From Bythopirellula sp. (lineage in GTDB: Bacteria; Planctomycetota; Planctomycetia; Pirellulales; Lacipirellulaceae): a DNA stretch of 64,000 bases. Position 1 is the first letter of the stretch. Each line of letters opens with the position of its first letter. Of the stretch, positions 29,425-41,198 are shown piece after piece. Position numbers and translations under genes: made by a program. The notes beneath the pieces were generated by a model. That model was not told the DNA's origin and did no database searches. It saw only the letters and a program-made list of their open reading frames with translations. Location: positions 1,568,001 through 1,632,000 of the forward strand of contig OZ244170.1 in assembly GCA_965216565.1 (NCBI GenBank), written 5' to 3'.

Positions 29425-30719
29425 TGTTCGGCTTATCTCTCGGCGAAAAAGTCACGATTGGTACCGCTCTGCTGGGCGGCATGGCTGGTGTCGTGGGCAG
29501 CTTTGCGGTGCTCCGCGGAAGAGCCTTGGTGGGAGACATGCTTTCCCACGCTGCGCTGCCCGGCGTCTGTCTCGCCTTTCTGTTCATGGAGAGCCGCAAC
29601 CTGCTCGGACTGTCGTTCGGGGCACTGGCTAGTGGGCTACTTGCCGTGGGAGCCGTGACACTGATCGTCCGTTGGACTCGAACCAAACAGGATGCCGCTA
29701 TCGGAATTGTACTCAGCACCTTTTTCGGTGCCGGGGTAGTACTACTTTCGGTCGTTGCCAAGTCCGACCGGGTGACAAAGAAAGCCGGAATTGATCACTA
29801 CATTTTTGGCGAACCTGCCAACATTCTCACTAGCGATCTCTACCTCTTAATCGGTGTAGCTCTCGTCGTGATTCTGACGGTGATTGTTTGTTTCAAAGAA
29901 TTTCAAATCGTTTGCTTCGATCAGGATTTTGCCCAGACACAAGGCTGGCCAACACTCGCCTTGGATTTATCCATGATGAGTGCACTGACCGTCGTGACGA
30001 TTGTCGGCTTGCCGATCGTCGGTGTCATTCTCATGGCCGCAATGATCATCCTGCCTGCGGCCACGGCTCGGTTTTGGACCAACCGATTGCAAATCTTGTT
30101 GCTGCTGTCTGGGGCGTTTGGCGTGGCCTCCGGGGTGATTGGCACTCAGGTCGGGCGTCGCATCCCCGCGGCAGGTGCTTCGATCGTGCTGAGTGCGGCA
30201 GCAATGTTCCTGGTCTCGCTACTCTTCGCCCCGCAACGAGGCGTGGTCGCTAGGATCTATGCCGATTGGCAACTCCGCAAGCGAATTGCCCGCGAGCACC
30301 TGTTGCGTTCCCTTTATGAGCTGGGTGAGTCGGAGCTCCCCGAGCTTGTTGAACTGCCCATCGAACAGCTTCGCAACTATCGCTATTGGGGCCCGCGTGC
30401 TATGGAACGGCTGCTGAACTGGGCCGTTGACGATGAACTGGTGAAGACACGTCAAGACGTAGTCCAGCTAACGCCCTTGGGCCTAAAGCGAGGGGCAGAG
30501 CTCACGAAGGCACATCGATTGTGGGAGATGTATCTTATGGAATACGCCGACATCGCTTCGGATCACGTGGACCGCGATGCCGACGAAACCGAGCACCTAC
30601 TCCCCGACGCGCTTTTGATTGAACTAGAGAAGCAGCTGTCCGAAGAAGGCCGCATGCCGCAGGTTGTCGAAGAAGTGCCCGTCTCCCCCCACGAATTAGA
30701 CGCGGGTGAAGAAACATGA
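29421..30719 (+). CDS. Metal ABC permease fused to a DtxR-like metal-dependent repressor domain
   Basis: [10 protein letters not shown] permease motif; C-terminal LTPLG...AHRLWEMYL...[12 protein letters not shown]. Confidence 0.88.
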
Positions 30720-32026
30720 TGGGTTACATCTCACAACACGCGCTGCTTATTGCCGCGAACGCACCCTGGACGGCTGACGAAATGTGGATCGTTGCCACCG
30801 CTTGTGCCACGAATGTCGCTTGCGCAATCGTCGGATGCTTCTTGGTCTTACGCCGCATGAGCATGATGGGCGATGCGATTGCCCATGCGGTTTTGCCTGG
30901 ACTTGTGCTGGCCTTTCTGTTCTCTGGTTCGCTGGGAATCATTCCCTTGTTTATTGGTGCCGCCATTATGGGTTTGGCCACTACGTTTCTCACACAAATG
31001 CTGCACCAGCACGCCCGCGTTCCCAGTGATGCCAGTATGGGCGTGGTCTACACCTCGCTGTTTGCCGTGGGCGTTGTGTTGCTGAAGCTGAATATCACCG
31101 GAGTCCATTTCGACGTTGCCTGCGTTTACGAAGGTTCGCTGGAATTCGTCTCCTTCTCTGAATTCATCCTGGGCATCCCCCGGCCATTGCTAACGACGTT
31201 GATTGTTTTGGTGCTTAATCTTTTCATACTCGTGATCATGTGGAAAGAGCTCAAGCTCAGCACATTCGATCCGGGGTTGTCCACAACACTCGGATTCTCA
31301 GCAACCGGCCTGCACTATCTACTGATGACGTTGGTCGCACTCACCACCGTGGCTTCGTTTGAAGCGGTGGGGTCCATTCTGGTGGTGGCCATGCTAATTG
31401 TGCCAGCCGCGACGGCCCACTTACTCTGCGATCGGTTTGGGCTGATGGTTGTGCTCTCTGCTGTTGTGGGAATCGCAGCAGCCGTGCTTGGTTTTCTGCT
31501 TGGTCGATACTTCGACACCAACTATGCCGGCATGATGACTGTCGCAGCCGGAGGCTTATATAGCTTGGCCGTATTGTTCTCGCCGCGTTATGGCTTGGTC
31601 TCCGCAGTAGTGAGGAATGTGCGTCTTTCGACCAAGGTGCTTCGCGATGATCTGCTGGCCATGCTCTATCGAATCGAAGAGCTCGCCAGCGAAAAGCCCC
31701 TCTCTGCCACCCAGGCGCGGTCGGCCGTCGGCGGAGGCATCCTGGCCTACTGGGGTCTGGCGGGCTTATTACGAAATGGTCGCGTCGCCTCCCACAACAA
31801 TCACCTCCAACTCACCGAAAGCGGCAGGAAAATCGCTCAAAAGCTAGTCCGCTCGCATCGGCTTTGGGAAACCTATCTCGTTGAGCATCTGGGGATGCCA
31901 TTGGACCACGTCCACGAACCCGCGCATCGCGTCGAGCACTTTATCGATGATAGACTCCGAGAAGAACTTGAAGCCGAAGTCGATACCACCAGCGGTGATC
32001 CCCACGGGCGTAACATTCCAGAGTGA
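30716..32026 (+). CDS. Metal ABC permease fused to a DtxR-like metal-dependent repressor domain
   Basis: DAIAHAVLPG; C-terminal LTESG...RSHRLWETYL...DHVHEPAHRVEHF. Confidence 0.88.
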   Translation: MMGYISQHALLIAANAPWTADEMWIVATACATNVACAIVGCFLVLRRMSMMGDAIAHAVLPGLVLAFLFSGSLGIIPLFIGAAIMGLATTFLTQMLHQHARVPSDASMGVVYTSLFAVGVVLLKLNITGVHFDVACVYEGSLEFVSFSEFILGIPRPLLTTLIVLVLNLFILVIMWKELKLSTFDPGLSTTLGFSATGLHYLLMTLVALTTVASFEAVGSILVVAMLIVPAATAHLLCDRFGLMVVLSAVVGIAAAVLGFLLGRYFDTNYAGMMTVAAGGLYSLAVLFSPRYGLVSAVVRNVRLSTKVLRDDLLAMLYRIEELASEKPLSATQARSAVGGGILAYWGLAGLLRNGRVASHNNHLQLTESGRKIAQKLVRSHRLWETYLVEHLGMPLDHVHEPAHRVEHFIDDRLREELEAEVDTTSGDPHGRNIPE

Positions 32027-32681: not shown

Positions 32682-33539
32682 TCAGGTAGAAATCAGTTTT
32701 TTTAACGTCTTCAAATTGATGACATCCAAATCCTTGCCTTTTTCTTCGCCTTTGGGTGTCTCTAAATATTTCGGGACTTTCCGGAATCTTCGATCGTTGA
32801 GCAAGAATCGGAACGGCTCGAGACCCATTTCACCCTTACCGATTCGGGCATGGCGATCGACGCGGCTGCCGAATTTGGTCTTACTATCATTGAAATGAAA
32901 TGCCTTGATTTGCTGGACACCTATGGTCTTATTCAGCTGTCGCATAGTCGCCTTGTAGTCTTTCTCCGTTCCCATCGGATAGCCAGCTGCAAAGACATGA
33001 CAGGTATCGAAACAGACGCCGACTAAGTCGGGGTTCTTCACACCGTCGAGTATCGTGGCAAGATGCTCAAACTTCCAACCGAGATTGGAACCCTGCCCAG
33101 CAGTAGTTTCCAGCAGGCACTTAGCCGAGCAACCCTTGGTTTGTTTGTGCACTTCGTTAAGTGCCTTGATGATCCGCCTCAGCCCGCGGTATTCCGTACT
33201 AGTGGTGAATGCGCCCGGATGAGCGACGACGTACTCGATACCTAGCAGTTCCGCCCGCTGCAGTTCGATCACAAACGCATCGACGGATTTCTTCCACAGC
33301 TCGTCGTCGGGACTAGCCATGTTGATTAGGTAAGAATCGTGAGAAATGGGGTACTTGATCCCGTGCTCTTGCAGCGCAGACCGAAATCGCTCAACATCCT
33401 CATCCGATATCGGCTTCGCGCGCCACTGGTTGTTGTTCTTAGTGAATAACTGGACACAATCGCAGCCTGCCTTGGCCGCTGCTTCCACAGCCTTGTAGTA
33501 TCCACCAGCGATCGACATGTGCGCACCGAGAATTGCCAT
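32682..33539 (-). CDS. nfo: Endonuclease IV
   Basis: GAHMSIAGG, HDSYLIN, LETTAGQG, DTCH, HFNDSK...DRH, ETP. Confidence 0.95.
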   Translation of the reverse strand: MAILGAHMSIAGGYYKAVEAAAKAGCDCVQLFTKNNNQWRAKPISDEDVERFRSALQEHGIKYPISHDSYLINMASPDDELWKKSVDAFVIELQRAELLGIEYVVAHPGAFTTSTEYRGLRRIIKALNEVHKQTKGCSAKCLLETTAGQGSNLGWKFEHLATILDGVKNPDLVGVCFDTCHVFAAGYPMGTEKDYKATMRQLNKTIGVQQIKAFHFNDSKTKFGSRVDRHARIGKGEMGLEPFRFLLNDRRFRKVPKYLETPKGEEKGKDLDVINLKTLKKLIST

Positions 33540-33748
33540 GCCTCAGAGGATAGTGGATCGTGCCGCCAGAGGGCAGGGGGGAGACGCTCCCCAGTCGGGC
33601 AAACGTTAAAGTAGCCGAGTAATCGTTAAAATCGGAATTGGAGAATCTCTACCAGGAAGATCCTCGCGTCCGTTTTCATTCAAAACAGCCCTTTTTATGT
33701 GGAAAACGTAGAGTCTTGTACTACCAGTTGTTCCTTTAATGCCTGCTA

Positions 33749-35770
33749 TTGAACCTGAGAACGAACTTCCCCGTGAACGAAAAAGCCCCCCCCATCCAAC
33801 GCGGCTCTGTGGTTGCGAATTGCGCCTTAGCTACCGGTTGCCTACTGGCAATCAGCTTCTATTCGTCCGGATTCTCCCTGCTCGCCTGGATTGCACTGGC
33901 ACCGTTAGGTGTCGTTCTGTCCACAAAAAAAATGACCCTACGCTGCTGGGCGGGAATCTACTTGGGGGGCCTGATTTTTCATCTGTGGGCGCTCGATTGG
34001 ATTCGCACCTTATACGGCGGCTTTGCGTTGGAAGGCAACTATGCACCAGGTTGGCTAATCTGCGGGCAACTCGGCGCTGTGATATTCTGCCTAATGATCC
34101 TTGCAGGTCGGCGGCTAGTTCTGACCTCGAAACTTCCCGTGACTCTCGCGCTTCCCTTTGCTTGGTACTTCTATGAAACGATGCAATCTTTGCTGATGAT
34201 GGCGTTCGACCAACACGCCATGCGCTACTTGAGCCTGGCTCATACGCAGGCCGATTACCCGCTCATCTCGCAAATTGCCGATCTAGGGGGCGAGTTAACT
34301 GTCAGCCTGCTCGTCGCCCTCGTGAATGGATTTATCTACGATCTTCACTTTGTGCGAATCGATCTCCCGTTCCGCAAGTGGGACTGGAATCTTGTGGCTC
34401 GTTGCGTCGGTGTTCCGATCATTTTCACGGGTTCGATTTCGTACGGATATTTTCGCATGCATCAACCCGTTCAAGAGACGGGACCCAACATTTGCCTCAT
34501 GACTCGGCACGACCTGCCGCCTTTGATCAAACCAGACCGATTGCCATCGGCGGACAAAACCGATCTATATGTCTGGCCCGAGCTGGCTTATCACCACGCC
34601 ATCATCGATGCCCAGAGCAGCGCTCAAAAAGAGGCCACAATTGCTGCTCATTGGCCATTAACTCGCGGCGACGTTGAGGGCTACAGACATCGAATTTCTG
34701 ACTATCTGCAGCAAACCGCACAAAACCTGAATGCGAACCTGTTAATCGGAGTCGAAAGACTCTCGGCCGAGGATGATCAAATTAGCACTTTCAACTCACT
34801 GGCGTATGTCCATCCGGAAGCCGGTGTTGTAGGAACCTACGATAAGGTGCACTGCGCACCATTCCGCGAATTTGCTCCCGCTCACTGGGAGTGGCTCCAG
34901 ATTGCTGTGCCCGTTGAATATTCCCGGGGCAAATCCCCCACAACATTTGCGCTTTCTACTTCCACGGGCGACGAGCTCACGTTTGGATGTGGCCTGTGCT
35001 ACGAAGTTGCCTTTCCTGACCATTTCCAACAGCAGATGGAAAACTCTCAGCTCGACTTTTTCGTCTTGGCTGGAAGCGAAGCAAGCGACTCAACAGGAGT
35101 CTTGGCGAAAACACTATTACGCATGGCCCAACTACGCGCCATCGAAACACGTCGGCCCATTGTTCGCAATGCACATAGGGGCTATTCGGGTTGGATCGAC
35201 AGTTGCGGACGAATCGTTTCTGTATCCGATCGCAACGAACTAGCGCAACCACGGGCTCTCACGCCCACTCAACTCGATGCCCGAATCAGCTACTACGCTC
35301 AGTGGGGCGATTGGCTTTCGCCACTCATGATTAGCCTCTTTGCAGTCGCATTGATCTTGCCCAACGTCCAGCAACTTATGAAATCACTCAGAACCATTGG
35401 CACGGGAACCACCTCGCCCAAATTCCCTCCACCAGTTCGACGAGCTCGCGGTAGCGGCTTCTCCCTCTTTGAACTGATGGCGGTTGTTGCCATTTTGAGC
35501 ACGATTGCAATATTGATACTACCTCGCGTCACGGGTGCTACCGATGCGGCCAAAGAACGGGCAGACAAAATGAATATTGCGTTGCTCAACTCTGCGGCCG
35601 AACGCTGGTATTTGGACAAAGGCGCGTGGCCCGCGATCAACCTGAGCGACATTGGCGCGGACCCCAACTATTTGCCAGAGGGTATTCCAGTTAGCCCTCA
35701 TACCGGCAAAGCGTACAAACTCAACTCATTCACGATGCGGGTCAACAGTACCGGCGGTGGCGGAAAATAA
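33749..35770 (+). CDS. Apolipoprotein N-acyltransferase (Lnt)-like protein with a C-terminal type IV pilin/pseudopilin domain
   Basis: N-terminal TM helices; QIADLGG; nitrilase triad VWPE / YDK / LCYE; LRAIE.RR; WGDW; then RRARGSG|FSLFELMAVVAILSTIAILILP. Confidence 0.8.
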   Translation: MNLRTNFPVNEKAPPIQRGSVVANCALATGCLLAISFYSSGFSLLAWIALAPLGVVLSTKKMTLRCWAGIYLGGLIFHLWALDWIRTLYGGFALEGNYAPGWLICGQLGAVIFCLMILAGRRLVLTSKLPVTLALPFAWYFYETMQSLLMMAFDQHAMRYLSLAHTQADYPLISQIADLGGELTVSLLVALVNGFIYDLHFVRIDLPFRKWDWNLVARCVGVPIIFTGSISYGYFRMHQPVQETGPNICLMTRHDLPPLIKPDRLPSADKTDLYVWPELAYHHAIIDAQSSAQKEATIAAHWPLTRGDVEGYRHRISDYLQQTAQNLNANLLIGVERLSAEDDQISTFNSLAYVHPEAGVVGTYDKVHCAPFREFAPAHWEWLQIAVPVEYSRGKSPTTFALSTSTGDELTFGCGLCYEVAFPDHFQQQMENSQLDFFVLAGSEASDSTGVLAKTLLRMAQLRAIETRRPIVRNAHRGYSGWIDSCGRIVSVSDRNELAQPRALTPTQLDARISYYAQWGDWLSPLMISLFAVALILPNVQQLMKSLRTIGTGTTSPKFPPPVRRARGSGFSLFELMAVVAILSTIAILILPRVTGATDAAKERADKMNIALLNSAAERWYLDKGAWPAINLSDIGADPNYLPEGIPVSPHTGKAYKLNSFTMRVNSTGGGGK

Positions 35771-35773
35771 CGC

Positions 35774-36796
35774 TCAGCTGGACGCATTGTCTTCGTATTC
35801 CTGCACGGAACTCTCGTCCGAGAGCTCCTGCACTCTACGCAACCCCGGCATTTTCCAGAGGCTGAATTGCGCGATGATCACCAGCGAGACGATCATTACT
35901 AAACGATCGAGTAGTGCTGCCGCCAGCGCCTCAGCTTTAGTCGCTCCAGTCACACTCGCGCCGTAGACAATTGCGGCTTCACGGAATCCCAAGTTGCCGG
36001 GGGTGAAGCTAAAAAAGAATGCCAAGTCGGCTAACAACGAAGCGACCATCACCCCGGTGAAATGCGTCTCGACGTCAATTCCCCAAAAGGCAACTTGCAG
36101 ACGCATCGCGCGAGCAAGGATCGACGTCAGTTGCAAGCCGACCAAGCGCAACAACAAGTTTCGATTGCGGCTCAACACATGCCACGATTCGCTAAGTCCT
36201 CGGAAAAAATGGGCAAGCTTGCCGGGCCAAGAGTCGGGGACCTTAACTCGCACCAACAAGGCAATGGCGGCACCGATCACGCAACAGACAAAAACAGTCA
36301 GGATTTCCCAGGGCGGAGCGATTCCTTCCAATCGCCACAGCAGCGCAAGACCTGTCATCCCTAACATGCCAATGACAAAGCACTGCACAAGCGCGATCGG
36401 GAACAACAAACCCGTGTAAGAAGCAAATCGAACACCATAGCGTTTCTTTAAGTAGACTCCCGTCACACCGAATCCAGAACGGGGAATGAACAATCCCGAA
36501 TAGGCGCGCAGCATCAACAGATTGAATGCTTCCATCCGACCGAGGCGAGTGCCAATCGCCAGCAGCGTCTGTCGGAAGATCTCCGACGCGAAAATCCGGT
36601 TTACGAATGAGATGGCTAATATTGCCGCCACATATCGGGGACTCACTTCCAGAAGCTTCGGCAGGTCGCCCCAATAGCGTCGTCCCAGATAGGCGAGCAG
36701 TACGAGCGAGGCCACCGACAGAACCTTCCGCCACGGTCCCGACCGTTTGCGAGGGTTGGCCTCCAGAGCCTCTTCGGTCGGTGCGTCGGTTGTCAT
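35774..36796 (-). CDS. Lysylphosphatidylglycerol synthase TM-domain (UPF0104, flippase-like) protein
   Basis: Multiple TM helices; FTPGNLGFREA...A.AAALLDR. Confidence 0.78.
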   Translation of the reverse strand: MTTDAPTEEALEANPRKRSGPWRKVLSVASLVLLAYLGRRYWGDLPKLLEVSPRYVAAILAISFVNRIFASEIFRQTLLAIGTRLGRMEAFNLLMLRAYSGLFIPRSGFGVTGVYLKKRYGVRFASYTGLLFPIALVQCFVIGMLGMTGLALLWRLEGIAPPWEILTVFVCCVIGAAIALLVRVKVPDSWPGKLAHFFRGLSESWHVLSRNRNLLLRLVGLQLTSILARAMRLQVAFWGIDVETHFTGVMVASLLADLAFFFSFTPGNLGFREAAIVYGASVTGATKAEALAAALLDRLVMIVSLVIIAQFSLWKMPGLRRVQELSDESSVQEYEDNASS

Positions 36797-36883
36797 AGAT
36801 AACAGGGCAGGCAATCGAGTGGAGCGGGAATAAGGTAAATCTGTCCGGCAATTGGGAAAAGGAATAACTTACGCGGAGCGAAA

Positions 36884-37639: not shown

Positions 37640-38536
37640 CTACTCTACTGACTGAACACGCAAACGAAAGATCACGACAAGCCCTGTCGCAAGAAGAGAG
37701 ATTGTCCCAGGCTCTGGAACGGGAATTTCAATCACTACGTTGTCGATGATTCCATATTGTTCAGCAGGCACACTGCCAATCGACGCGAAAGGATCTTCAT
37801 ACCCAACCATGATGTGCCCAGCCGTCGGAGTGTCAGCAATGGAAAAGAAATTCTGACCATTAAATGAAACCTGAACTGCTCCCTGATTCGCAGACACGCT
37901 AACCTGCACCCATTGGTTGGCCGCCGCATTGGCAGTATTAGGACCCGGTTGGGCAACAGTCCTTTCAAATGCAGCATTAAACAAACTCCGATGCGTACTG
38001 CCATCCTTCCGATCTTGCTCCGCAATCCCAGAAAAGGCTACCGCATCTTCGCTGTTATATCCGTTTTCCACGGCTAACCAACCATAAGTCCCATTCCCAG
38101 CTGTAAACCGGTTATTCCTTCCCAAGGCGGTGGCATTGGTCCTTCCAATGCCCCACAAACCTTGCTCCGTGCTTCCGGTAGAAGGCAACGGGTCGGAGGT
38201 ATTCAGCCACATGTCGTACTGCAGCTCAAACACTGGATAAGTCAAGTCGGCATTCGCACCGGGAACTATCCCCACTAGATTGGCTGCTGCTGGAACTCCA
38301 CTGGACATATTAGCCTTGAATACAACGCCAGTCGTTGCTGCCGAGCCCGGAACCGGATTCGGTGCTTCTGAGATTCCCAGAAGTCCATAATCAACTATCT
38401 CAGTCGTCGTGTCAGGTTGAGCGGCAAGAAACCAGTTCGATAAGTCGTCGAAACCGTCCGCTAATACGACGACAGCAGCACACGCCTGCTGTTCCACCAG
38501 AAACACTAGCACGGCGGCAATAAGTACTAACCTCAT
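37640..38536 (-). CDS. PEP-CTERM sorting domain exported protein
   Basis: Signal peptide; C-terminal VPEPGTISLLATGLVVIFRLR. Confidence 0.88.
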   Translation of the reverse strand: MRLVLIAAVLVFLVEQQACAAVVVLADGFDDLSNWFLAAQPDTTTEIVDYGLLGISEAPNPVPGSAATTGVVFKANMSSGVPAAANLVGIVPGANADLTYPVFELQYDMWLNTSDPLPSTGSTEQGLWGIGRTNATALGRNNRFTAGNGTYGWLAVENGYNSEDAVAFSGIAEQDRKDGSTHRSLFNAAFERTVAQPGPNTANAAANQWVQVSVSANQGAVQVSFNGQNFFSIADTPTAGHIMVGYEDPFASIGSVPAEQYGIIDNVVIEIPVPEPGTISLLATGLVVIFRLRVQSVE

Positions 38537-38719: not shown

Positions 38720-40771
38720 TTAAACCGCCCGGGGACGTTCCTTAATAAGATCGTACCGGCGGATCTTTCGGTCGAGCGTCGAGCGTTCGATGCCCAGGAT
38801 GCCGGCGGCGCGGCTTTTGTTCCAGCCGGTGGCGTTGAGGGTGCGGAGGATGTGTTCGCGCTCTACGTCGGCTAGCGAAACGGCTTCGTATGTCCCGTAG
38901 CCGGAGGTGGTGGTCCCCGATTCGGTGTCGCCCGCTGTTTTTAGAGCAGACAGCACGAGATCATCGTGATCCACATACTCGCCACGGGCGAGTACCACGG
39001 CGCGTTCGATCACGTTTTTCATTTCGCGCACGTTGCCGGGCCAACGATAGCGGAGCAATTCTTCCATCGCCCGCGGCGAGAATCCCTTCAGCTTGCGGCC
39101 CGTCTCTTCGTTGAACTTGCGCAGGAAAAACTCCGCCAGTTCCGGGATGTCTTCCGGACGCTTCCGCAGTCCCGGTACTAGAATCTCCAGCACATGCAGA
39201 CGGAAATACAAATCCCTGCGGAATGATCCTTCGGCAACGTCTTTCTCCAAATCGCGATTGGTCGCCGCGATGACGCGGACGTCGACCTTGATTTGCTCGG
39301 CACCGCCCACACGCTCGAAAGGATGCCCCTCCAAGACGCGAAGGAATTTTGCCTGAATCGTGGGGCTCATCTCGCCGATTTCATCGAGCATCAACGTGCC
39401 CGTATCGGCTTGTTCGAACTTGCCAATCTTGCGGTCCGTGGCACCAGTGAACGCGCCTTTTTCGTGGCCGAACAATTCACTTTCCAGCAAAGTTTCCGAG
39501 AGAGCCGCACAGTTCAAACAAACGAACGGGCCTTTTTCGCGCGGGCTAGAGAAGTGAACCGCACGTGCAACAAGCTCTTTGCCAACACCACTCTCGCCGC
39601 GAATGAGCACGGTCGCACGACTGGGGGCAGCGCGGGCGATTTGCCGAGTGACTTGCATCATCACTTCGCTTGAGCCTACGATTTCGCTTTGCACACCCAA
39701 CTGCTCGCGTAGATTGGTGTTCTCTGAACGCACCTGGTTCAGGTTTTCTGCCAGCAATTGACGTTTACTTAGGTTTTCCAAGGCAACACCCACAGTGTCT
39801 GCCACCGCTAGCGTGAATTCCAAGTCCTCAGGGTCCGTGGGCTTTTCCACGTCCGTCGTGTAAAGATGCACAAGCCCCAGCACCTCGCCTTCCATTCGGA
39901 TTGGTGCACAAACTACGCTTGTCGCCAGAATTTCACCTCGGCTATCTCGGTTGCCCAGGTTGCTGTCGTCCATCACATTCCGTGCCATCACCGCCTGGCC
40001 ATCACGCAGGACGGTCGAAGACAGGAATTGGGAGACGCGGTGGTAGGAGTGGTCGCAATCGCTCCGCGAGGCAACCACTTCGAGGTCTTCGCTGGTCCGT
40101 TCGCCTTTGGAATCTCTCTGGCGAAGTAGGATCGCACCGGAATCGACCCGCGTGCCTTCAAACAAACCATTGAGCGCTGTGTTGGCCAGCGACAAGACGT
40201 CGGTGGAACGAGCAAGATCGAACGCGAGCCGGCAAAGCATTGCCGCGGCGCGCCCTACCTTGGGCAGCGATTCCTCGTCTGTCTCTTCCATCGTGGGCAG
40301 ATCAAGAAAACGACTTTGCCCTTTGCGATGCGTAATGGTGGTTGGCTCGAAGGCCTCGAAGATGCTTTCGGCTTCTTCGGTTTGATCGTCGACGCCCGTC
40401 TCACTCGTCTCAACCGACTTGGATCCACGCAGCAACGTATTCGTATCGGGAAAGGCCTGCGACAAATCGTGCACAAATGCGAGATGCGAATTGCCGATTT
40501 GAACAATATCGCCCGGCTGTAGCGTACGATCGCTGCTGACTGGATCGCCACTGACAAGCGTGCCGTTGCGACTTTCCAAATCGCGTAGTTTCCATTCGCC
40601 TTGAGCTTGAAACACTTCGGCGTGATTGCGACTGCAACGTTCGTCCTTCACGACAATTGTGTTGGTAGGCGCTCGGCCCAAAGTCACCGATTCGCCAGGC
40701 ACCAATCGCACCACGTCGGCCCATTTCGAGCCGTCGCGAATAATCAGGTATGCTGTCAAGGAGTCTGACAT
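38720..40771 (-). CDS. FHA-GAF-sigma54 AAA+-Fis transcriptional activator
   Basis: LGR...SRNHA...SRNGT (FHA); [25 protein letters not shown]-terminal HTH. Confidence 0.92.
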
Positions 40772-41198
40772 ATGTAGCGAATTGATACAGTCGTGGTAGC
40801 GGAGATTGTAAGTATAACTGGGAAAGTAGCTTACGAAAAAGCCACTCAGCTTCATCGGCCGGGGATTCCTACTCCTAGTATGCACGTAATTAAGCCAATA
40901 GCCAAGCATCGTCCCCCCTGTTCGGGCCTGTTGGAGTCTGAGAAAGTGCGTATCTTAGAGGCCGACTCGCTCGGTCAAATTTCGCTGTGTTTACGCGGGG
41001 AAACGTCAAAAGTGTTGAATATCAAGGGGTTTGCAACTACTCTGGAGATAGGGTAGCGCGCCGTAGGTCTAGCGGTTAAGAGATCTGGCGAAACCTTAGC
41101 GCCGTCGGTGCACAGCTACTTTTACGGAACAACCTTCGAGAAGCGTATCGCAAGCCAGCGTGCCGATTGGCGAAGTTGGCGAAACAAGGAGAAAACTG

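Follow-up and report, generated by a model that had tools for sequence, protein, structure and literature searches.

A stretch of 64,000 nucleotides from Bythopirellula sp. (GenBank assembly GCA_965216565.1, contig OZ244170.1, forward-strand positions 1,568,001 to 1,632,000; hereafter the window) contains a gene at positions 33749..35770 in which an enzyme resembling the N-acyltransferase Lnt continues in frame into a class III signal and a small type IV pilin. The question raised by this locus is why an acyltransferase and a pilin share one reading frame. A reading made from the DNA letters alone (the sequence-only reading) had proposed a polyprotein that prepilin peptidase splits into an acyltransferase and a pilin, coupling lipidation to pilus assembly, and had named internal initiation and a recent loss of a stop codon as alternatives. 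The analyses reported here establish that the fusion is real and old, and that its enzyme is a paralog of the housekeeping Lnt. Judging from sequence comparisons and a predicted structure, we propose, with slightly less than even confidence, that prepilin peptidase would cut the product at G570|F571 and that the Lnt-like half would N-acylate the tail lysine of its own pilin.

The Fused Gene Is Conserved

The gene forms a single uninterrupted frame of 673 amino acids when read from TTG 33749, and its version in the public protein collection (P0002) starts at GTG 33773 and has 665 amino acids. The Lnt-like body, the class III signal and the 103-amino acid pilin are all contained in this frame with no stop codon between them, as had been described from the sequence alone. 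Among the 16 database homologs nearest to it, nine are fused proteins of equal length, with a query coverage of 93–99% and identities of 35–52%. Two more fused forms were found in GTDB representative genomes (L031, which is the same as P0122, and L032), and a profile search of 1.84 billion cluster representatives retrieved seven fused sequences among its best 150 (P0002, P0009, P0012, P0122, P0123 and the fragments P0126 and P0235). Homolog search, GTDB representatives and the best 150 of the profile search together gave at least 15 distinct fused sequences, which occupy one clade of the enzyme tree (see below) with a single unfused sequence, P0008, nested among them. No Rfam match was obtained at E ≤ 1 in the region 33300-36100, and scans for promoters and terminators found sites that were no more numerous than in shuffled sequences.

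Two other explanations of the fusion were considered. One is that it arose as an artefact of sequencing or assembly, or that the stop codon separating two genes was lost very recently. A contig of run X1 bridges the junction and is identical to the window, and an independent metagenome contig of run X5, from another study, covers positions 33600-35899, and with them the whole gene, with 19 substitutions and no indels. The X5 variant introduces no new stop; its four amino acid changes all lie in the enzyme, and the pilin part shows three synonymous and no non-synonymous changes. Together with 15 distinct fused sequences from different sources, kept at 35–52% identity, these contigs rule out a recent stop loss and leave an artefact practically no room. 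The other explanation is that, in this genome, translation starts anew at the in-frame ATG 35378 (M544), yielding a prepilin with a 27-residue leader and leaving the read-through fusion incidental. This ATG does exist, as had been pointed out, and two TTG codons also lie inside the last transmembrane helix; no purine-rich stretch precedes the ATG, the 20 nt upstream contain nothing resembling a Shine-Dalgarno sequence, and the promoter scan did not rise above chance. Moreover, the codon is not conserved as a start: about half of the fused linkers have no Met at all, L032 has no ATG, GTG or TTG within the 40 codons before G|F, and the sole candidate in L031 is a TTG inside the transmembrane helix. 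Since L031 and L032 have no usable start in the linker, the pilin part must be translated as a fusion in at least those relatives. With the frame open in 15 of 15 fused forms, internal initiation is very unlikely, and the gene product is almost certainly one polypeptide.

The residues that follow ATG 35378 (MKSLR…) resemble the free-standing leader of the pilin at L091:4934-5254 (MKSLRIKKVSG|F), and the ATG may be a relic of an ancestral pilin start.

The Enzyme Half Looks Active and Has the Lnt Fold

Residues 30-194 of the fused protein match Pfam LNT_N (5e-19), and no match to Pfam CN_hydrolase was obtained for it at E ≤ 1. A model of the whole chain was built with AlphaFold2 (AF2) on a 134-row alignment; it was confident, with a mean predicted local distance difference test (pLDDT) of 90.5 and a predicted template modelling score (pTM) of 0.87. 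Compared by Foldseek with solved Lnt structures, the model gave template modelling scores (TM-scores) of 0.73–0.78 for 5n6m, 8b0l and 5n6h, the best match being 5n6m (E 3.5e-21, TM-score 0.77). In this model seven helices precede the periplasmic domain and one (residues 523-551) follows it, and residue 551 is placed in the cytoplasm because of the homology with Lnt.

The putative catalytic residues E278 (WPE), K366 (YDK) and C417 (CYE) were invariant in 17 of 17 aligned paralogs. K366, E374 and C417-Y-E line up with the YNK, GEF and CYE motifs of Escherichia coli Lnt, and E278 was assigned from the family alignment, the pairwise alignment with E. coli Lnt being unreliable around this Glu. The triad, the last transmembrane helix, the G|F site with Phe at 35459 and the Glu at +5 were all found where the sequence-only reading had placed them. 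With an invariant triad and a fold matching that of Lnt, the enzyme half looks active.

A Paralog Distinct From the Housekeeping Lnt

The sequence-only reading had not recognized the enzyme as a paralog. A separate canonical lnt, whose presence that reading had asked about, lies elsewhere in the genome (C1:3960284-3961579) and scored 253 bits in the genome profile search, versus 124 (123.8) for the fused gene. In a maximum-likelihood tree of 55 enzyme domains, the named Lnts, including the one of this genome, are separate from a clade of 38 paralog rows (support of 100 in the SH-like approximate likelihood ratio test, SH-aLRT). Within the latter, a subclade of 21 rows (98) takes in all the enzymes linked to small pilins: 12 fused, six adjacent to a pilin and three with no known context. 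The 12 fused enzymes sit in one nested clade (97), which also includes the unfused P0008, and L074, whose enzyme is not fused but has a pilin gene next to it, branches as the sister of this clade (94). When P0008 was kept out of the clade of the 12 fused enzymes, the resulting tree was not rejected by the approximately unbiased (AU) test (p-AU 0.46), and one fusion event is therefore sufficient. A secondary loss of the pilin in P0008 was considered and dropped as not robust, since the same tree is not rejected.

Relatives of the gene were all found in Pirellulales (Lacipirellulaceae, Bythopirellula, Aeoliella and others). Of 401 genomes sampled from the order, 15 encode a close paralog (E ≤ 1e-55), two of them in the fused form (G000 and G733, the latter being L032), and among 401 genomes spread across the phylum only G000 has one. 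Within the genus, one of 14 other genomes carries a close paralog, an unfused tail-to-tail pair at 35% identity (G725, which corresponds to L099/L118). The fused gene is a patchy accessory gene. Such a patchy distribution may indicate that the gene moves horizontally.

The Pilin Half Retains a Class III Signal

After the last transmembrane helix comes a linker with six basic and no acidic residues (pLDDT 58–69), followed by the predicted cleavage site G570|F571 and by E575. The model shows a helix of 52 residues (573-624) and then a small, confident head. Residues 569-629 match the GspG model TIGR01710 (3.6e-8), the pilin half also matches ComGC and ComGE models, and a 130-amino acid piece of it passes TIGR02532 (18.0 bits, with a cut-off of 16.3). 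Residues 571-639 align to residues 1-69 of the gonococcal pilin 1ay2. The signal is internal: it begins at about residue 566 of 673, behind an enzyme with eight transmembrane helices, unlike the usual short leader at the N-terminus.

F571, L573 and E575 are invariant in 10 of 10 fused pilin modules. The residue at −1 is G in nine of the 15 fused forms and A in the other six, an Ala at this position being found in free-standing members of the pilin family too, and a basic residue occurs between −2 and −5 in all 15. These positions have been kept while the enzyme half drifted to 35% identity, and this speaks for a module that continues to undergo pilin-like processing and assembly. Overall, the pilin module looks functional.

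The module is 43–58% identical to free-standing pilins of about 107–120 amino acids that are common in the order. These relatives lie in tandem beside genes for GspE/PilB, GspF/PilC and minor pilins, in the same genome as well, where such a cluster is located about 46 kb upstream of the fused gene (L026; Table 1). The cluster includes a gene resembling that of a major pilin, whose product shares 55% identity with the fused module and has the C-terminus …HRVN. Two A24 peptidases are encoded in the genome, one of 454 amino acids (with a weak match to A24_N_bact) and one of 191 amino acids.

Many Unfused Paralogs Lie Beside Proteins With Class III Signals

Searches with hidden Markov models over all fetched loci identified six loci in which an unfused paralog and a small pilin gene stand tail to tail, with gaps of −6 to +46 nt (L010, L027, L028, L074, L083 and L099). 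A seventh pair, L117, in which the genes overlap by 9 nt, came from a separate search made later; three further loci that it yielded proved to be L074, L032 and L099 again.

DUF1559 proteins with a class III signal adjoin other members of the paralog clade: they are tail to tail with the enzyme in L005, L008 and L030, co-directional and overlapping in L013 and L015, and divergent in L007. By coordinates alone, G104:C190 is a further tail-to-tail case. In L025 the paralog and the DUF1559 protein are fused in an open reading frame (ORF) of 919 amino acids (L025:1256-4012, minus strand), which P0163 (939 amino acids) and P0203 (915 amino acids) resemble by eye only. Five genomes with such pairs contain 17–32 DUF1559 matches each, so a chance neighbor of this kind would be expected at about one locus in 100. 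Counting the fused gene, 16 of 25 paralog loci have a fused or adjacent class III partner, and no other neighbor was conserved across the paralog loci examined. The convergent LPG_synthase_TM gene next to the fused gene (35774-36814, minus strand) was also considered as a partner and was rejected, being conserved neither in L031 and L032 nor in the unfused loci.

Fusion together with a conserved neighborhood is a classic sign of functional partnership, and we regard such a partnership between enzyme and pilin as very probable.

A Glycine-Lysine Tail Marks the Linked Pilins

The fused pilin ends in a Gly-rich extension with a Lys. Among distinct sequences, such an extension was present in 22 of 22 Lnt-linked pilins versus two of 149 unlinked ones; one of these exceptions stands at the edge of a contig, and a partner gene may have been cut off there. 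Fourteen of the 15 fused forms terminate in GGGGK or a similar motif, the remaining one being P0012 (GSGGGIGWKWS). The seven adjacent forms have the tails DSGGGGGK, DGISFGK, GTGKGVGH, GSGKLAGLHP, GGGKSGGHPF, AGGKGGGNHSP and GGGKGGDHSPP. In a group of Cys-containing pilins, the Lys is found in the adjacent members and not in their non-adjacent kin. The idea of a coupling between lipidation and pilus assembly gains from this tail motif, specific to Lnt-linked pilins, and from the tail-to-tail pairs of unfused relatives; as a whole it is supported in part.

In the fused forms compared (the present gene, P0005, P0126, P0235 and P0122), three to nine Gly residues precede the terminal Lys, which itself is constant, as would fit a flexible spacer.

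Free-standing pilins end in three other ways: most in …T(H/K)RVN, a second group in …GH(T/N)H and a third in …GH…DH(SP). The GspE/GspF pilin clusters of the order (L026 in this genome, and L033-L109) carry three classes of small pilin by C-terminal end, and the His-rich ends are possibly metal-binding.

A Proposed Route From Fusion to Acylated Pilin

The mechanism that we propose starts from topology. Seven transmembrane helices, a periplasmic catalytic domain and an eighth helix returning to the cytoplasm would leave the linker at the cytoplasmic face; the first helix of the pilin would then cross from inside to outside and bring head and tail into the periplasm, beside the active site. Prepilin peptidases cut at the cytoplasmic face, and the predicted topology bears out the claim that the G|F site lies on that side. 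The 454-amino acid A24 peptidase would cut at G570|F571 and free the 103-amino acid pilin; given how the signal positions are conserved, cleavage at this bond is probable. An acyl chain taken from a phospholipid would pass via Cys417 to the ε-amine of Lys673, the tail lysine, which the sequence-only reading had passed over, being the best candidate acceptor, though one that we see as possible rather than probable. Once lipidated, the pilin could join the filament of the GspE/GspF cluster 46 kb away, whose major pilin is its paralog, as a rare subunit that is hydrophobic or serves as a membrane anchor. A wider version of this proposal, in which a Pirellulales clade of Lnt paralogs is dedicated to proteins with class III signals and the present gene encodes a polyprotein that prepilin peptidase splits so that the C-terminal Lys of the released pilin is fatty-acylated, appears rather doubtful as a whole.

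Two other roles for the termini of the pilin were considered. The α-amine of the N-terminal Phe was set aside as acceptor since the predicted topology would place it on the cytoplasmic side, at a distance from an active site that faces the periplasm. Attachment to peptidoglycan through the C-terminal Lys, as in Braun's lipoprotein, leaves the link to an Lnt-like enzyme unexplained.

Several results weigh against cleavage followed by acylation of the tail. Residues 105-489 reach 128.2 bits with the NCBIfam lnt model TIGR00546 and narrowly miss its cut-off of 132.9. The pilin half stays below the cut-off of Pfam N_methyl (21.2), with 15.8 bits for the whole protein and 19.4 bits for the 130-amino acid piece; free-standing pilin paralogs pass it at 29–31 bits. 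The fused gene is flanked by genes on the opposite strand, with no pilus operon around it, and no class III neighbor was seen at nine of the 25 paralog loci, of which some lie at the end of a contig, nor at L120 and L126. The association of tail and linkage comprises one independent contrast when supported branches alone are counted and five when all branches are; the sequences are related and no significance is claimed. The pilin tree, built on 96 columns, is poorly resolved and cannot be used to count the origins of the Lys tail. In the AF2 model the tail, with a pLDDT <50, is disordered, and no docking is apparent. The DUF1559-type partners of sister paralogs have no Gly-Lys tail, and the tail Lys therefore cannot be the acceptor for the whole paralog clade. 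Finally, we know of no prepilin peptidase that cuts behind a 570-residue "leader" with eight transmembrane helices.

These points bear differently on the other ways in which enzyme and pilin might work together. If the signal stayed uncut, the pilin would remain as a ninth helix with a periplasmic domain, serving as a substrate-recruiting or regulatory lid, or as a tethered last subunit that docks the enzyme at the base of the pilus or anchors that base. The lack of a known precedent for processing of an internal signal behind eight transmembrane helices speaks for this arrangement, and the pTM of the whole chain is compatible with a fixed one; but G/A at −1, F at +1 and E at +5 are strictly kept down to 35% identity, which is hard to explain for a plain anchor helix, and the partner in the sister lineages is an ordinary free-standing prepilin with a short leader. 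We consider an uncut signal unlikely. To a similar degree we doubt that the pilin is something other than the acceptor, with the paralog acylating another cargo, such as a lipoprotein or a secreted protein of a pilus or pseudopilus machine, and the pilin-like partner placing the enzyme at the machine or coupling it to it. The pseudopilin-like DUF1559 partners of the wider clade, which lack any Gly-Lys tail, would suit this well; it leaves unexplained, however, the Lys tail of the Lnt-linked small pilins, nearly absent in others, and no third conserved gene was found beside the pairs. The tail itself could instead be the site of a transamidase reaction, in which the catalytic Cys attacks the Gly-Lys bond, the new C-terminus of the pilin is passed to an amine of a lipid head group or of the cell wall, and the Lys or what follows it leaves. 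Most branches of the nitrilase superfamily are amidases, which attack C–N bonds, and the tails can be read in this way: the Lys is the last residue of 14 of the 15 fused forms, and a short, dispensable-looking stretch comes after it in several adjacent forms (GGK-GGGNHSP and GGGK-SGGHPF). A reaction of this kind nevertheless seems to us very improbable, and acylation of the tail lysine after cleavage is the reading that we prefer.

Relation to Known Systems

The fused enzyme shares with the Lnts of E. coli and Pseudomonas aeruginosa (5n6h, 5n6m and 6nwr) the succession of seven transmembrane helices, a periplasmic nitrilase-like domain and an eighth helix (TM-score 0.77), the Glu-Lys-Cys triad and the flanking PF.EF and CYE motifs. 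It differs in belonging to a separate, strongly supported clade, in its equivalog score below the cut-off, in its C-terminal pilin and in coexisting with a canonical lnt in the same genome; its acceptor is unlikely to be a diacylglyceryl-cysteine.

In P. aeruginosa 1244 the O-oligosaccharyltransferase TfpO/PilO glycosylates the C-terminal serine of the pilin. There, as in our proposal, an inner-membrane enzyme with a periplasmic active site is encoded beside its pilin and acts on the exposed pilin C-terminus; the differences are that acylation is proposed instead of glycosylation, that the enzyme families are not the same and that in our case enzyme and pilin form one polypeptide. In Mycobacterium tuberculosis Lnt is fused to a polyprenol-phosphate-mannose synthase (Ppm1), another natural fusion of an Lnt-family domain whose parts are separate genes in relatives, although the partner there is a cytoplasmic glycosyltransferase and not a substrate-like secreted protein, and no proteolytic release takes place.

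AatD of enteroaggregative and enterotoxigenic E. coli offers a precedent: this homolog of Lnt serves dedicated substrates that have no lipobox, Aap and CexE, whose N-terminal glycine it acylates, reportedly using phosphatidylethanolamine (PMC8689077). Both cases involve an Lnt-family enzyme genetically coupled to one non-lipobox protein (here through 15 fusions and seven tail-to-tail loci) and an amine acylated in a glycine context, the latter being a proposal in our case. The acceptor of AatD is an α-amine exposed by signal peptidase I on a soluble protein, in a system with the Aat exporter (AatPABC), whereas the acceptor proposed here is the side chain of a C-terminal Lys on a pilin anchored in the membrane, whose signal is of class III and whose N-terminal Phe would lie on the cytoplasmic side. 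This likeness is drawn from the described function of AatD; judged by fold and triad, the fused enzyme would work as Lnt and AatD do. PilB of Streptococcus sanguinis is a modular type IV pilin, in which a pilin module is likewise joined to a functional module in one protein (PMC8179133). The additional module of such pilins comes after the pilin and the signal is N-terminal, whereas here an enzyme of 570 residues precedes the signal and release would need an internal cut.

Full-text literature searches retrieved no report of a fusion or link between Lnt and a pilin. The partnership ties N-acylation of the lipoprotein type to type IV filaments, two well-studied envelope systems not known to meet. 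If the proposed mechanism is right, the product would be the first type IV pilin to carry a lipid, its enzyme the first of the Lnt family to act on a lysine, and the fusion the first natural precursor cut by prepilin peptidase behind a whole polytopic enzyme, which would mean that class III signals can work internally. The fused form would then be a self-contained enzyme-substrate pair, and the DUF1559 links of the sister paralogs could offer a handle on the largest orphan protein family of planctomycetes.

Coordinates and Neighboring Genes

Table 1. Parts of the fused gene (positions in the window) and the pilin cluster of the same genome (positions on C1).
Feature	Positions	Strand	Basis
Whole fused ORF, stop codon at 35768-35770	33749..35770	+	
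Lnt-like body, first seven transmembrane helices (residues ~15-237)	33791..34459	+	Pfam LNT_N 30-194; AF2 helices; Foldseek against Lnt structures
Periplasmic CN-hydrolase (nitrilase-like) domain, residues ~240-520	34466..35308	+	TIGR00546 105-489; invariant triad; motif alignment with E. coli Lnt
Putative catalytic codons E278, K366 and C417	34580-34582; 34844-34846; 34997-34999	+	Family alignment
Eighth and last transmembrane helix, residues 523-551, predicted cytoplasmic end	35315..35401	+	AF2; includes in-frame ATG 35378 (M544)
Basic linker ending like a prepilin leader (…VRRARGSG), Gly570 at −1	35402..35458	+	pLDDT 58–69; basic residue at −2 to −5 and G/A at −1 in 15/15 fused forms
Predicted start of the mature pilin: Phe571 (+1, codon 35459), Glu575 (+5, 35471-35473), long α-1 helix 573-624	35459..35620	+	Motif; AF2; alignment with 1ay2
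Small globular pilin head, residues 625-666	35621..35746	+	~55% identity to the free-standing major pilin of the genome
Disordered Gly-rich tail STGGGGK ending in Lys673, proposed acyl acceptor	35747..35767	+	pLDDT <50; tail motif in Lnt-linked pilins
Pilin cluster L026: GspE/PilB-type ATPase; GspF/PilC-type platform protein; small pilin ending in GHNH; GspH-like pilin; two further minor pilins; PilX_N protein	C1:1545000-1557000		

Two further loci of the window were noted, and neither the regulator nor the PEP-CTERM protein of the second is linked to the Lnt-pilin gene. At 30716-32026 (plus strand) a protein of 436 amino acids combines an ABC-3 metal-transporter permease (residues 26-288) with the C-terminal metal-binding and dimerization domain of an iron-dependent repressor (367-436), an unusual fusion of permease and sensor. 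At 38720-40909 (minus strand) a regulator with FHA, GAF, sigma54-activator and HTH_8 domains adjoins a gene for a PEP-CTERM protein (37640-38536, minus strand).

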